Shown here one piece after another: positions 42,959 through 63,018 of a DNA stretch of 64,000 nucleotides. The DNA is from an uncultured Anaerolineaceae bacterium. GTDB taxonomy: Bacteria > Chloroflexota > Anaerolineae > Anaerolineales > Villigracilaceae. The notes beneath the pieces were generated by a model. It saw only the letters and a program-made list of their open reading frames with translations, ran no database searches and was not told the DNA's origin. A program made the translations under genes and the position numbers. The DNA lies in NCBI GenBank assembly GCA_964502095.1, contig CAZCUF010000011.1, positions 10,459-74,458 of the forward strand. The letters run 5' to 3'. Within the stretch, counting starts at the first letter, position 1. The number at the start of each line of letters is the position of its first letter.

Positions 42959-43405
42959 ATGGATCCAATTACATTGGCCGCGTCTGTCACGACCCTGCTT
43001 GCGCCGTATCTTGCCAAGGCGGGAAAGGTATTGGCCGATAAGGCCGCCGAACAACTGCCCGGAGCAGTTGGCGCGTTGTGGGACAAAATTTCCCAAAGGT
43101 TCCAGTCCAAGCCTGCCGCGCAGGATGCGGTCGTAGATCTGGTGCAAAATCCGAGCGATCAGGATAATCAGGCCGCGTTCGAAACTCAACTGCGGAAGAT
43201 GTTGAAGGATGACCCCGCCTTCCTGAAAGAATTATCCGATTTGACCGACAAGGCTCAACAGGAAACGATCAGGTTGCAGGGCAGTGGCGCGGTTGCGACG
43301 AATGGCGGTGTTGCGGCCGGGCAGGGCGGTGTGGCCGTCGGCGGAAACGTGCAAGGCAACATCGTGGTTGGCAACAATAATAAAGTTTCGAATAAACCGA
43401 AATAG
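42959..43405 (+). CDS. Small helical protein with a C-terminal G/N/V-rich beta-solenoid/amyloid-like motif (candidate Bell/HeLo-like effector)
   Basis: 148 aa. Hydrophobic N-terminal helix MDPITLAASVTTLLAPYLAKAG, then charged helical region to about aa 105. aa 106-143 read GSGAVATNGGVAAGQGGVAVGGNVQGNIVVGNNNKV. The motif recurs at the N-terminus of the next gene. Confidence 0.5.
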   Translation: MDPITLAASVTTLLAPYLAKAGKVLADKAAEQLPGAVGALWDKISQRFQSKPAAQDAVVDLVQNPSDQDNQAAFETQLRKMLKDDPAFLKELSDLTDKAQQETIRLQGSGAVATNGGVAAGQGGVAVGGNVQGNIVVGNNNKVSNKPK

Positions 43406-43454: not shown

Positions 43455-45833
43455 ATGGCAACTGTCAATGTGCAAGGTAACGTCGAAGGCAATATCGTCG
43501 TCGGCGATAATAACTTTGTAGTTAATACAAATTACGGCACGGTTGTATATAAGCAGGCCGAGCCGCGCGTTCAGGCGCGGAGTCTTTCACCCAAGGCGCC
43601 GCGCAGACCGCGCGGTTTTATCGGACGCAAAGCCGAGCTGGAGAAACTGGAAAGCTGGATTGCCGCTTCCGACCCGATCCTCCTGCACGGCATGGACGGT
43701 ATGGGGAAGACCACGCTTGTCAAGCAGGCCGCTAACGGCGCCGCCGCGACTTCACAGCCCAATGGAGTTGTCTATCTCGAAGGCGTAGATGAAACCGGGC
43801 AGATGCTCGGCTTTGGGGATATTGTTCAACGCCTCTTCGATGCGTTGTTCGAGTCCGACCCTGCGCTCAAGGTGGACCTGACGACTGCGCGTACATATTT
43901 GAGCAATGTGCGCGCTTTGGTACTGCTCAACTCACTGACCCTCACAGACGACAATCTGCAAAAATTACTGGATCTGTTTCCGTCCGCGCCGATTCTGATC
44001 GCGGCCGAAGCCGGTTCGCGCCTCGACGCATTTCAGGACCTTTCGCTTTCACCGATGCCGCGTGCCGATGCGCTGGCTTTGTTCTTCGACCGCGCCGAAT
44101 TGAAATTGGATGACGCCAACCAGGTTCCTGCCGATCGGATCGCTCAATTGCTGGATGATGTACCTGCCGCGCTGGCGATCGTTGCGAATGTGATCCGCGA
44201 AAAGGGACTCAAGCTGATAGACGTGCTGGACCAATTGCGCACCGCGGCCGCCTCCTCGAAAGAAGCTGGGCGCGCCGCGCTCGAACGCGCCTGGGCTTTG
44301 ATGTGGAATCAATTATCCGAGGATGAGCGCGGCATGATGACCATGTCCGCCGCGGCCTTCGGCGTTTCTGTAGATCGAAAATGGCTGGAGGGCCTGGCGG
44401 GCGGAAAAGCTGTCAGCGGAAAATTAGAGTCGATGGAACTGTTGCAGGCTAATAGTCCGCGCCTGAGGCTGATGCCCGGCATGCGCGCCATGATGCTCGA
44501 CCGCGTAAATCTTCAGTCGGCGCGCGAGCGCTGGCTGGAAGAAATGTCTTCCGCCATGGACGAACGATGGGACGATTTCGATTTCGTGGGGGATGAGCTG
44601 GGAAATTTAATTGGGTTGATCGAATGGTGCGCGGCCAACCGTAATTGGGCCAAGGTGATTTCGCTGGGACGAAAGCTCGACCCGTATCTTACCCTGCACG
44701 GCTTGTGGGATGTATGGCAGAGATTGCTCGGTCGTTTGTTGGAGGCCGCGCGCGCCTCAAAGGATCATTTATCGGAAGGCTGGGCTTTGCATCAGTTGGG
44801 TACGCGGGCTTTGGGAATGAACGACGCGCACACGGCCCGCAATTTTTTGCAACAGGCTTGTGTGGTGCGCCGCGCCGCCAAAGATGAAGTTGGGCTGGCC
44901 TATAGCCAGCATAACCTGGGATTACTTGGGCCGGTTGCCGTTGCAAGGCCCGCAACCGTAAAGCGCGGATGGTTCGCGTGGCTGGTCGGCGGATTGGTGA
45001 CCGCCGCGGCGCTGGGAGGGACGCTCCTCGGCGGCGCGGGAGCTATGCTCTTGAATCTGCTTTCGCCGCCCAGCGCGACCCCCACATTGACGGTCACTTG
45101 GACGCCAAGCTCAACGCATACACCGACTTTTACCGCCTCGGTGACTGCCTCAGCGACTCCTTCGCTCACCGCCTCGCCGACATCTACTGTGACGTTCACG
45201 CCAACGATGACAGACACCCCAACCGTTACGCCAACTCCGGTTTACACAATTTTACGCGGCACCGTGATTGACGATGTGGCTTGTTATTATGGGCCGGGCC
45301 GTATGTATTTGTATAAATATGGTCTCAAGCAAGGCGCGAATTTGAGTGTGCTGGGGATCAACCAAAACACCGCTGGCACATGGCTGTTAGTGGGGAACAC
45401 ATTCACTCTTTCCACGCGGCTATCGAATCCGTGTTGGGTGAGTTTGAAGAGCATGGATGTGGATGGAGATCTCGCCGGGCTCTTCCCGGCTTATCCTGAT
45501 CAAACGCCTTTGCCGAAATCGCCGCTTTACCCGCCGCCGATGAACGTGATTGCCATCCGTAGCAAGGATCAGGTGACGATCACCTGGGATTACACCACCC
45601 CACTCCCGCCGGGTATGCGCGGAGATCACAGCACCAAGAGCCCGCTTTGGCTGGTCGAATTGTGGACGTGCCAGAAGGGCCGGCTGGTATTCACACCGAT
45701 TGGCGCTTACGATTCGACAGTGATAATTACGGACGAGCCGGGCTGTTCCGAGGCGTCGCATGGGCGCGTGTATCTGGTCGACTCCGATGGCTACGATGGC
45801 CCATCTGCGATCAAGTGGCCGGGGTTCCAATAG
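43455..45833 (+). CDS. NB-ARC-type STAND NTPase with N-terminal G/N/V motif, short helical repeats, a TM helix, a PT linker and an extracytoplasmic SH3b-like C-terminal domain
   Basis: MATVNVQGNVEGNIVVGDNNFVVNTNYG N-terminus. FIGRKAELEKL...LLHGMDGMGKTTLVKQAA P-loop. PILIAAE (RNBS-B-like). DVPAALAIVA (GxPLA-like). TM WFAWLVGGLVTAAALGGTLLGGAGAMLLNLL at aa 506-536. PT-rich aa 537-596. The C-terminal 196 aa contain 4 Cys. Confidence 0.7.
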   Translation: MATVNVQGNVEGNIVVGDNNFVVNTNYGTVVYKQAEPRVQARSLSPKAPRRPRGFIGRKAELEKLESWIAASDPILLHGMDGMGKTTLVKQAANGAAATSQPNGVVYLEGVDETGQMLGFGDIVQRLFDALFESDPALKVDLTTARTYLSNVRALVLLNSLTLTDDNLQKLLDLFPSAPILIAAEAGSRLDAFQDLSLSPMPRADALALFFDRAELKLDDANQVPADRIAQLLDDVPAALAIVANVIREKGLKLIDVLDQLRTAAASSKEAGRAALERAWALMWNQLSEDERGMMTMSAAAFGVSVDRKWLEGLAGGKAVSGKLESMELLQANSPRLRLMPGMRAMMLDRVNLQSARERWLEEMSSAMDERWDDFDFVGDELGNLIGLIEWCAANRNWAKVISLGRKLDPYLTLHGLWDVWQRLLGRLLEAARASKDHLSEGWALHQLGTRALGMNDAHTARNFLQQACVVRRAAKDEVGLAYSQHNLGLLGPVAVARPATVKRGWFAWLVGGLVTAAALGGTLLGGAGAMLLNLLSPPSATPTLTVTWTPSSTHTPTFTASVTASATPSLTASPTSTVTFTPTMTDTPTVTPTPVYTILRGTVIDDVACYYGPGRMYLYKYGLKQGANLSVLGINQNTAGTWLLVGNTFTLSTRLSNPCWVSLKSMDVDGDLAGLFPAYPDQTPLPKSPLYPPPMNVIAIRSKDQVTITWDYTTPLPPGMRGDHSTKSPLWLVELWTCQKGRLVFTPIGAYDSTVIITDEPGCSEASHGRVYLVDSDGYDGPSAIKWPGFQ

Positions 45834-60887: not shown

Positions 60888-60909
60888 CTCATTCCGCGAA
60901 TTGCAAACG

Positions 60910-60953
60910 AAAAACAATGTGGATGCCGGAAAGCATCCACATTGTTTTTTTTT
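60910..60953 (+). terminator. Strong rho-independent terminator
   Basis: Perfect 14-bp stem AACAATGTGGATGC / GCATCCACATTGTT flanked by an A-run and T9. Confidence 0.85.
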
Positions 60954-61022
60954 CTGCCGCCTGCGGATTCGTTCCGCAGTACAATTGAAAGCGCCCCATC
61001 GCAAAACCGGTAAATGAACCGC

Positions 61023-61089: not shown

Positions 61090-63018
61090 ATGGCAAAGAA
61101 AGACAAATCGTCGGCTCCGCCCAAATCCGTTCACGCGGAAAACGGCGGCACTGGCATTGGCGGGAATGTTGTTAATTCCACGATCATCGCGGGCGATGGC
61201 AATACTGTAATCCAGCAAGCTCCTCCGCCGCCAGAGACTCACGACACCATCGGTTTCATCCCTCCCGCCAAAGCGGAGACGTATGTGCATCGCGGCAAGA
61301 TCGAAGAGGATGTGATCGCCCATATCCGCAAGGGAAATGCGGGAGCGATCGTTGGCGTCCACGCCCCGGGCGGACTTGGAAAAACCGAGCTCGCAAAGCA
61401 AGCCGCAGAAAAGTTGAAATCCGAATACGAAGTCCTGTGGGTGGACGTGGGCAAAAAGGAGCCGCGCCAATTACTCAGCGAGATTATGGGAAAGTGCGGC
61501 GTGCAAATTCAGCCGACCGATTCGGATGAACGGTTGAAGAACGAACTTCACCACGTCTATCTTTCCAGAAAAATATTCCTGATTCTCGATGATGTGCGCG
61601 AGGAATCGTTGAACCAGCTGGCGGAAATCCTGCCGCCCAGCCCCTGCGCCGCGCTGGTGACCAGCCGCATCCAGGACATTGGCGGCGTAAAAAACTTTGC
61701 GCTGGATGCGATGGATTGGAATCAAGCCCGCCAGTTATTCGAAGCGGTCCTGGGCGAAGCGGTTGTTGCGCCCGAACTCGATACGGTGAAAACGCTTGCT
61801 GAACGGTGCAAATTCAACCCGCTCGCCATGGAGATCGCCGCGCGGCGCATCCGCCAATTCGAAGGGACGCGTAAACCTGTGGCGCGCTATTTCGAGATCG
61901 CGCAAACCAGATTCTCGGAATTAAAAATGACCGGCGACGCTCGCTGGGATATGGACAAGGTCTTCGACATCAGCTATTTGGATTTGAGCGCGGAAGACCA
62001 GCAGAAATTCCAAAAGTTATCGGCGTTTCACCCGACGGGCTTTTCCGTGGAAGCGGTCGCCTTTCTTTGGAACGACGACATCCCGCTGGCGCGGAATCTG
62101 CTTTCGCGCTTCATCAACCTGTCGCTTGTAAAAATCGTCGAGATGGATTTGGAACGCTATCGCCTGCACGATCTGTTGGATGAGTTCACAACCCCGAAAC
62201 TCAAAGCCAGCGGAAAGTACAATGAGACAAAAACCGCGCTGGCGCAATGGCTGGTGAATTTATTCGGCGAACACTACACTGCGGATATCAGCACGGCTCC
62301 TCATGTTGCCGTTGAACGGGATAATTTACTCCACGCCTGCGAGTGGGCGAGGGGAGAAAAACAAGCGGAGGTTCTTGCCCTGCTGACGACCAAGCCTTGG
62401 AACTGGTTTTACAATATCTTTAGAGATTCATGGGGGCAATGGTTTGCCTGGCTCGAAGCCTCCTTGCAATTGGGTATTGAAGATAAGCAATTAAAAGCCA
62501 ACGTGCGAAAAGCGATGGGCGATGTGCAACAGTTCCGCGCTGAGCGAGATGCCGCGCTCGACAGTTACAACGAAGCCTTGAAACTCTTCCGTCAGGTCGG
62601 GGATAAATTGGGCGAAGCCAACGTGCGAAAAGCGATGGGCGATGTGCAACAGTTCCGCGCTGAGCGAGATGCCGCGCTCGACAGTTACAACGAAGCCTTG
62701 AAACTCTTCCGTCAGGTCGGGGATAAATTGGGCGAAGCCAACGTAATGGCAGCTAAAAGTCGAATGTCCATTCGCGCAGGCGAGATCGAAAACGCCGAAA
62801 AGCAATTAACAGAGATCATTCAAACGAGAAGACTGATAGGCGATCTTTACGGCGAGGGCGCTGACTATGGAAATTTTGCCATCGCTCTACTAGAGAGTGG
62901 ATATCGGGAAAAGGCAAGAGAGTACGCGCTCAAAGCGCGTCTGATTTTTGAGCAAATAAAACTGCCTGCCATTGTAGAGATGATGGATCGGGTTATTTCG
63001 GCGAGCCAAGAAGAATAA
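61090..63018 (+). CDS. NB-ARC-type STAND NTPase with N-terminal G/N/V/I motif and C-terminal TPR sensor
   Basis: ENGGTGIGGNVVNSTIIAGDGNTVIQQ N-terminus. VGVHAPGGLGKTELAKQAA P-loop. KIFLILDDV Walker B. ALVTSR (RNBS-B). FNPLAMEIAA (GxPLA-like). 40-aa TPR-like repeats at the C-terminus. Confidence 0.75.
   Translation: MAKKDKSSAPPKSVHAENGGTGIGGNVVNSTIIAGDGNTVIQQAPPPPETHDTIGFIPPAKAETYVHRGKIEEDVIAHIRKGNAGAIVGVHAPGGLGKTELAKQAAEKLKSEYEVLWVDVGKKEPRQLLSEIMGKCGVQIQPTDSDERLKNELHHVYLSRKIFLILDDVREESLNQLAEILPPSPCAALVTSRIQDIGGVKNFALDAMDWNQARQLFEAVLGEAVVAPELDTVKTLAERCKFNPLAMEIAARRIRQFEGTRKPVARYFEIAQTRFSELKMTGDARWDMDKVFDISYLDLSAEDQQKFQKLSAFHPTGFSVEAVAFLWNDDIPLARNLLSRFINLSLVKIVEMDLERYRLHDLLDEFTTPKLKASGKYNETKTALAQWLVNLFGEHYTADISTAPHVAVERDNLLHACEWARGEKQAEVLALLTTKPWNWFYNIFRDSWGQWFAWLEASLQLGIEDKQLKANVRKAMGDVQQFRAERDAALDSYNEALKLFRQVGDKLGEANVRKAMGDVQQFRAERDAALDSYNEALKLFRQVGDKLGEANVMAAKSRMSIRAGEIENAEKQLTEIIQTRRLIGDLYGEGADYGNFAIALLESGYREKAREYALKARLIFEQIKLPAIVEMMDRVISASQEE
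62495..62744 (+). repeat. Perfect 120-bp tandem direct duplication (2 full copies + 10 nt of a third) inside the TPR region
   Basis: 62495-62614 and 62615-62734 read identically base for base, and the identity runs on through AAGCCAACGT. Each copy encodes ANVRKAMGDVQQFRAERDAALDSYNEALKLFRQVGDKLGE. Confidence 0.95.

Follow-up and report, generated by a model that had tools for sequence, protein, structure and literature searches.

Introduction

Bacterial amyloid signalling has so far been described as strict pairs, in which one Bell protein stands beside one NLR. Dyrka et al. (2020; bioRxiv 10.1101/2020.01.06.895854; PMC8086366) reported such Bell/BASS/NLR gene pairs as adjacent or at most 5 kb apart, with one sensor per effector. 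In the present study, we analysed a stretch of 64,000 nucleotides (the window) from an uncultured Anaerolineaceae bacterium (GenBank assembly GCA_964502095.1, contig CAZCUF010000011.1, positions 10,459 to 74,458), which holds a Bell gene with its adjacent sensor gene, NLR1, and, apart from them, a second sensor gene, NLR2. The product of NLR2 carries an N-terminal tag that is very probably a genuine BASS6-class adaptor, and the best available reading, which we hold as somewhat probable, takes the genome's own Bell protein as the effector to which NLR2 signals.

The locus resembles the BASS6 pairs of Dyrka et al. in having a G/N/V-rich motif at the N-terminus of an NB-ARC/TPR protein, a motif of the same class at the C-terminus of a helical Bell-type protein of about 150 residues, and a host from the filamentous lineage of Chloroflexota. 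It differs from them in that NLR2 lies 15-18 kb off behind a terminator, Bell already has an adjacent sensor, and a profile dominated by actinobacteria misses these proteins, which the Chloroflexi subset alone detects. In fungi, NLR-side amyloid motifs outnumber effector-side motifs, and Wojciechowski et al. (2022; PMC9815663) speculated that a single effector may be under the control of many NLRs. As in the fungal case, for which HET-S/NWD2 is the prototype, tagged NLRs are not co-localized with the effector here and outnumber the effector-side motifs, and there are two pseudo-repeats in the effector tail as against one unit in the NLR; the fungal motif families, however, are others (HRAM, PP and sigma). 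Our limited literature search found no bacterial example of many NLRs acting on one amyloid-gated effector, nor does the bacterial BASS paper (Dyrka et al., 2020), as far as we found, mention a Bell effector with more than one NLR.

Two further systems are close. Amyloid signalling has been shown in the Escherichia coli antiphage system Bab/Agp, which uses BASS11 (Ibarlosa et al., 2024; 10.1101/2024.11.07.622273). There, too, the effector is a small protein related to Bell with an amyloid motif at the C-terminus, and it is switched on by a large sensor whose N-terminus bears the same motif, but this sensor is a TPR-GreA/B-PIN protein instead of a STAND NTPase, the two genes form an adjacent pair and the motif class is another. 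Amyloid templating leading to abortive infection has been proved experimentally for Bab/Agp. In ternary conflict systems, TCAD2 (PF19971, 'Ternary complex associated domain 2') goes together with NACHT or nSTAND NTPases, and in relatives the BASS6-like tags at the head of a TCAD2 protein and of its adjacent NACHT/FGE-sulfatase NTPase are the ones closest to that of NLR2. These systems differ in that the genome studied here has no TCAD2 protein and in that NLR2 is an NB-ARC/TPR protein. TCAD2 is said to go back to conflict-system papers of the Aravind group.

Results

The NLR2 protein and its N-terminal motif

The initial annotation had described a 642-residue NB-ARC/TPR protein in which an N-terminal motif is followed by a Pro-rich spacer and a P-loop, and the sequence is as claimed (Table 1). 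The open reading frame (ORF) starts with MAKKDKSSAPPKSVHAENGGTGIGGNVVNSTIIAGDGNTVIQQAPPPPETHD. Pfam matches comprise NB-ARC at residues 74-254 (1.2e-16) and TPR_12 (1.4e-10); the score against PF00931 is 61.1 bits (cut-off 23.5) and the Walker B hhhhDD pattern reads IFLILDDV in the translation, placing NLR2 in the STAND NB-ARC clade. Only 12 open codons precede the ATG in frame, and the next in-frame start is a GTG at codon 66, downstream of the motif. The motif lies at the extreme N-terminus of an NB-ARC protein with repeats, which is the layout of the NLR side of BASS pairs. The Lys-rich leader before it is probably a charged 'gatekeeper' flank. NLR2 has more than 400 homologs in Anaerolineales/Chloroflexota; seven studies have metagenomes, from wastewater and bioreactor sludge, in which its locus is present, and the motif is identical in contigs of wastewater metagenome runs from four studies.

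Motif searches were run with profile hidden Markov models (HMMs) against the six-frame translation (62,020 segments) of the 3.2-Mb assembly that holds the window (G000; 39 contigs, 97% complete; the window is C11:10459-74458). An HMM built from the nine Chloroflexi sequences in the BASS6 set published with PMC8086366 (supplementary file 42) placed the Bell tail at rank one (20.1 bits, E=0.0014) and the NLR2 N-terminus at rank two (18.6 bits, E=0.0043), the latter aligned without a gap over residues 11-40. An NTPase encoded on contig C13 came third (12.7 bits), and all lower matches were noise. When the 31-residue NLR2 core was shuffled 20,000 times with its composition kept, the real score was never reached with this model; with an HMM of Bell-tail homologs, 42/20,000 shuffles reached it. 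When BASS6-bearing proteins of other genomes, four TCAD2 proteins among them, were used as phmmer queries, they matched just the motifs of Bell, NLR1 and NLR2. Compared by eye, the NLR2 motif and the Bell-side BASS6 of Chloroflexus aurantiacus (A9WJ48_CHLAA) share 13 of 18 residues without a gap.

The one-gap alignment of the NLR2 N-terminus to the tail of the small protein, on which the initial annotation had relied, was reproduced with 12/27 identities and a score of 56, which was reached by three of 5000 shuffles that preserved the composition. The shared pattern that it had derived, [IV][IV].G[DN][GN]N.[IV], is matched in the six-frame genome only by the termini of the Bell tail, NLR2 and the C13 NTPase, but was derived post hoc. 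Position and pattern of the motif are conserved in NLR2 orthologs of 45-70% identity. The HMM E-values, the shuffles, the direct alignment and the foreign queries together indicate that the similarity is not mere low complexity, the objection that the initial annotation had raised against itself. The comparisons support homology of the NLR2 N-terminal motif with the motif of the Bell/NLR1 pair, within a Chloroflexi branch of BASS6. Simple membership of the actinobacterial BASS6 model was considered and dropped, because the whole-set profile misses Bell, NLR1 and NLR2 and the Chloroflexi subset alone matches.

Bell and NLR1 as the reference pair

The arrangement of Bell and NLR1 is the one that Dyrka et al. 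(2020) described for Bell/BASS/NLR gene pairs. Bell itself has no Pfam match, and distant homologs of it carry PF20701 (HetE-N). In its AlphaFold2 model, residues 1-107 are helical (predicted local distance difference test, pLDDT, ~80-89) and residues 106-148 disordered (pLDDT <50); a fold search of the model against the PDB returned nothing below E=0.9 and no structural link to Bab or HeLo. Across the 57 homologs, the helical body is conserved, the tail follows the consensus GSGAVATxGGVAAGxGGxAVGGNVxGNIVxGNNNTV, and tail units have been gained and lost.

The NLR1 tag aligns to R2, the last unit of the Bell tail, with 15/21 identities and a score of 70 (0/5000 shuffles), and scores 18.1 bits (E=0.006) with the Bell-tail HMM in the six-frame genome. 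The tags of NLR1 and NLR2 score 39 against each other (22/5000 shuffles), less than either scores against Bell. The NLR2-Bell score lies inside the range of 14 adjacent pairs (47-92). The sensors match different parts of the tail, NLR1 corresponding to R2, the NLR2 ortholog of one relative (G096) to R1, and NLR2 of the window to the R1/R2 junction together with R2. At one locus on a 1.39-Mb contig (L033, 10504-11709), the NLR1 ortholog beside Bell has an open frame of just 402 residues and may be truncated or frameshifted.

Motif carriers in the genome

A search of the whole genome for further copies of the motif, as the initial annotation had suggested, found one effector-type carrier, Bell, and three NTPases, namely NLR1, NLR2 and the C13 protein; Bell is the sole non-NTPase carrier in the assembly. 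Of the possible two-sensor, one-effector network that had been proposed, the count of one effector stands, but the candidate sensors number three, since the C13 NTPase carries the motif too. A dedicated partner for NLR2 elsewhere in the genome, whether a small helical, a TCAD2 or a two-transmembrane (2-TM) BASS6 protein, was not found in G000, and PF19971 gave no match there even at E<=10. The motif is absent from the other STAND proteins of the genome.

The gene of the C13 NTPase is cut by the contig end. A 46-residue ORF that ends 42 nt upstream of it (the two together lie at C13:75648-77842) is similar in sequence to the first Bell-domain helix (profile E=6.8e-4) and may be a relic. Many relatives (e.g. 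G118:C26:15178-15651, G033:C21 and G099:C4; G-numbers denote relative genomes and L-numbers the loci examined) encode 'all-in-one' proteins of ~1030-1085 residues, in which a Bell-like N-terminal domain is fused to an NTPase. That the C13 ORF and the nSTAND1 gene are a frameshifted protein of this kind was ruled out: the NTPase is not homologous to the all-in-one proteins of the relatives, and there is no stretch in which both frames are open, which means that a single frameshift cannot join them.

Linkage of NLR2 orthologs to Bell

NLR2 orthologs are syntenic, lying upstream of a convergent ABC exporter gene pair and often after a SpoU methylase gene. In two relatives, the distance to the Bell locus falls within the 5-kb linkage of BASS pairs. 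One is GCA_016191495: here, Bell/NLR1 is followed 3.3 kb downstream by the NLR2 ortholog (57% identity), whose tag IRVGKDVSGNVVVGDNNVVSN aligns with the Bell tail and the NLR1 tag without a gap. The other is G096, in which 1.4 kb separate Bell from the ortholog on the opposite strand, an arrangement also present on a longer ENA contig, and the N-terminus of this ortholog, INQSGSGAVATKKGIAAGAGGVA, is a near copy of the first Bell-tail unit R1 INVQGSGAVATNGGVAAGQGGIA (17/23 identities, 28 bits, 0/5000 shuffles). The likeness suggests that a tail-coding segment was transferred onto the sensor gene in G096. At L017 (9536-11209, G096) and L042 (10001-12013), the first 35 residues of the ortholog nearly copy the entire tail of the Bell protein encoded there, most closely in its first unit. 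The same slot by Bell/NLR1 is occupied in G065 by an NB-ARC/TPR protein that is unrelated (25% identity) and has the tag ISIGGDVSNSNIIQGDNNAITQQ. At one Bell locus with long flanks, no second tagged NLR was found within 10 kb.

Exchange of N-termini in the NLR2 family

Alignments of NLR2-family bodies begin at residue 39, and four types of N-terminus precede them: a Lys-rich leader with the motif, a 2-TM hairpin with a G/N/V/T stretch, a TIR domain (G084) and a helical domain (G078). The closest ortholog of NLR2 (G003, 78% identity) is of the fused 2-TM type. Close orthologs have swapped N-termini (L005-L024, L043-L061), with the junction at the Pro-rich spacer, and on a contig of metagenome run X4 the sequence of the window gives way precisely at 61234 to a linker of the 2-TM type (TIHEAPKPER). 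The tag stands in the position of an effector domain: other orthologs have a 2-TM, TIR or helical N-domain there. The NLR2 family is a modular NLR architecture in which an amyloid tag stands in for a separate effector.

Co-occurrence with small BASS6-bearing proteins

All eight other genomes with a motif-only NLR2 ortholog (G118, G122, G085, G096, G176, G153, G347 and G393) also encode a small BASS6-bearing protein, as against 8/26 genomes in which the ortholog is of the TM, TIR or helical type (nominal Fisher p ~7e-4 by our own arithmetic; the eight genomes represent just three genera). The small protein is Bell in G096 and, in the other seven, a TCAD2 protein of ~140 residues with an N-terminal BASS6-like tag and PF19971, encoded beside a tagged NACHT/FGE-sulfatase NTPase. 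Tag pairs within a genome outscore permuted pairs (p=0.03), and the own partner ranks first in G096, G347, G176 and G393.

The gene pair of a NACHT + FGE-sulfatase NTPase and, after it, a TCAD2 protein recurs (L025-L027, L031 and L062-L067) and was seen in G118, G122, G085, G042, G153, G347, G176, G393, G353 and G308. The N-terminus of the NTPase reads ...AGDxSVAVGGSVTDSAIIHGQTIVLADRFW, and the tag of the small TCAD2 partner is N-terminal, as opposed to C-terminal on Bell proteins.

Flanks of NLR2 and other features

The strong terminator that the initial annotation had placed after the KAS III-like gene upstream of NLR2 is a hairpin with a U-run and a stability of -37.3 kcal/mol (z = -7.8; 0/200 shuffles as stable), and because it closes that gene, NLR2 is a separate transcription unit. 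It was likewise correct that no small partner gene flanks NLR2, there being no small motif-bearing ORF beside it. The promoter-like element ascribed to NLR2, by contrast, was not recovered: a sigma-70 consensus scan of the upstream sequence returned no site. From the end of the Bell gene to the start of NLR2, 17.7 kb intervene, with about a dozen unrelated genes and the terminator.

The duplicated TPR unit of NLR2 measures 40 residues in the translation; the Logan contigs from all four metagenome runs examined break at this duplication. About 6 kb beyond the end of the window, a 1096-residue ORF (C11:80415-83702, minus strand) combines a CHAT/caspase-like N-terminal region with a P-loop NTPase that is a weak NB-ARC match. 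The C11 stretch with Bell, NLR1, NLR2 and this ORF looks like a loose conflict island.

Table 1. Features of the Bell/NLR1 and NLR2 loci; positions refer to the window unless a contig is named
Feature	Position	Strand	Remarks
Bell-type small effector, 148 residues, proposed shared target	42959..43405	+	57 homologs; helical body and tail
Bell tail, units R1 GSGAVATNGGVAAGQGG and R2 VAVGGNVQGNIVVGNNNKV	43268..43402	+	Residues 104-148; rank 1 with both motif HMMs
NLR1, 792 residues, adjacent cognate sensor	43455..45833	+	Residues 3-24 (VNVQGNVEGNIVVGDNNFVVN) match Bell unit R2
Intrinsic terminator	60909..60959	+	Closes upstream KAS III-like gene; 18-bp perfect hairpin and U-run
NLR2, 642-residue STAND NTPase	61090..63018	+	NB-ARC and TPR; short N-terminal adaptor replaces effector domain
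Lys-rich leader MAKKDKSSAPPK	61090..61125	+	NLR2 residues 1-12; similar leader in motif-only orthologs (alignment)
Putative amyloid-signalling motif of BASS6 class SVHAENGGTGIGGNVVNSTIIAGDGNTVIQQ	61126..61218	+	NLR2 residues 13-43; G/N/V-rich
Pro-rich spacer APPPPETHD	61219..61245	+	Boundary where ortholog N-terminal modules swap
P-loop GGLGKT	61369..61386	+	NLR2 residues 94-99, inside NB-ARC match; regular expression
Perfect tandem duplication, 120 bp, 2.1 copies, one TPR unit	62495..62744	+	Tandem Repeats Finder, 100% matches
nSTAND1/WD40 NTPase	C13:75830-77842 (outside the window)		PF20703, 1.4e-132; BASS6-like segment SIGGDVSRSVVIIGSGNKV near N-terminus

Discussion

The reading that NLR2 signals to the Bell protein is preferred because Bell is the sole compatible effector in the genome, because NLR2 orthologs are coupled to Bell elsewhere by both position and sequence, and because the similarity between tag and tail is adequate. 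Most likely, NLR1, NLR2 and possibly the C13 nSTAND1/WD40 NTPase all feed the one Bell effector. The comparison suggests an arrangement in which several sensors share one effector, proposed until now for fungi alone. Considering HET-S/NWD2 and Bab/Agp as models, we propose the following scenario. Binding of a ligand by the TPR array would bring about a nucleotide-dependent oligomerization of NLR2, and the oligomer would gather several N-terminal motifs, which may stack into a β-arch or solenoid seed. This seed would template the matching tail on a separate effector, whose helical domain, once freed, would attack the membrane, with abortive infection or a regulated death of the cell as the outcome. 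Of these steps, the formation of amyloid, the templating of Bell by NLR2 and the death of the cell are inferred here by analogy.

Several results weigh against signalling from NLR2 to Bell. NLR2 lies 15 kb from the end of NLR1, beyond the 5-kb linkage that defines BASS pairs, and no Bell gene lies within 8-10 kb of several NLR2 orthologs. The co-occurrence sample is limited to three genera, and an assembly completeness of 97% leaves room for a missing partner. Among ten candidates, the own Bell tail ranks ninth for the NLR2 tag, with foreign TCAD2-type BASS6 motifs, which share a 7-residue arc with that tag, scoring up to 83. With the HMM of Bell tails from other genomes, NLR2 scores 7-8 bits (E ~9), which places it seventh among the 62,020 segments and makes this model insufficient alone for NLR2, and an HMM of 114 published Bell-side BASS6 31-mers, mostly from Streptomyces, matches neither Bell, NLR1 nor NLR2. 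The last two results, the former lying within six-frame noise, together with the post hoc origin of the shared pattern, would also be expected if the G/N/V-rich, low-complexity segments were alike by chance and had no common function. We regard such a coincidence as highly improbable: none of the 20,000 composition-matched shuffles attained the score that an independent published model assigns to NLR2, at E=0.004 genome-wide, position and pattern are kept in orthologs of 45-70% identity, and the orthologs beside Bell give far stronger matches.

The resemblance to TCAD2 motifs bears on an explanation that we consider unlikely, though it deserves more weight than chance, namely that NLR2 has a real BASS6 tag and is uncoupled from Bell, its cognate partner of TCAD2 or 2-TM type having been lost or lying in the unassembled 3%. 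NLR2 would then be silent, decaying or waiting for a new partner. It could be such a stranded sensor because its tag is nearer to foreign TCAD2 motifs and the genome has no TCAD2 protein. The tag has the TCAD2-typical arc and aligns without a gap to the TCAD2 proteins of G153, G393 and G085 with scores of 73-83, compared with 56 for the own Bell; TCAD2 and not Bell is the partner in 7/8 other genomes with motif-only orthologs, and the closest ortholog is of the fused 2-TM type. However, the NLR2 gene is intact, its motif is the same in the wastewater contigs of four studies, and the duplication in its TPR sensor is very recent. Furthermore, the ortholog adjoins Bell in two Bell-containing species in which TCAD2 was not detected, and that of G096 has gained a copy of the Bell tail. 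The similarity of NLR2 to Bell also falls within the range of cognate pairs, and the two members of an adjacent, cognate Bell/NLR1 pair (L038) likewise differ by one residue inserted or deleted at the same arc.

Somewhat less probable still is that the G/N/V segment serves to oligomerize the NTPases themselves, for example with the membrane-spanning NLR1 as a helper, or forms in cis a 'neck' like the one that fused orthologs have between their 2-TM hairpin and NOD, so that NLR2 does not template Bell. The 2-TM orthologs retain a G/N/V/T-rich stretch (e.g. QSGDGTKVVVQGGNVTIHEAP) before the NB-ARC domain, for which no partner in trans is needed, and the NLR1 and NLR2 motifs are alike. Yet these two motifs score lower against each other than each does against Bell, the fused forms are explained equally well as effector-BASS-NLR gene fusions, and co-occurrence with small BASS6 proteins is unexpected of a purely cis-acting element.

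If unlinked sensors do share an effector, as signalling from NLR2 to Bell would imply, surveys of adjacent genes undercount such systems, and the wiring of bacterial NLR repertoires would be set by tag similarity and not by gene order. The specificity of amyloid tags as against their cross-talk would then be a testable design principle of prokaryotic immunity. The idea is made testable by a natural series, in which one sensor body bears a tag like R1, like R2 or like that of TCAD2 proteins, or instead a membrane or TIR domain fused to it. More speculatively, and in our view improbably, the BASS6 motif could be a shared amyloid 'bus' in Anaerolineales, to which unrelated sensors connect through exchangeable N-terminal tags and from which interchangeable executioners are driven. 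The sensors may include NB-ARC/TPR, membrane-spanning AAA_16/TPR, nSTAND1/WD40 and NACHT/FGE-sulfatase proteins, and the executioners Bell, TCAD2 and the fused 2-TM hairpin. Such a bus, if true, would constitute a prokaryotic many-to-few network of immune receptors operating by templated folding, functionally analogous to the sensor/helper NLR networks of plants and to death-fold adaptors.

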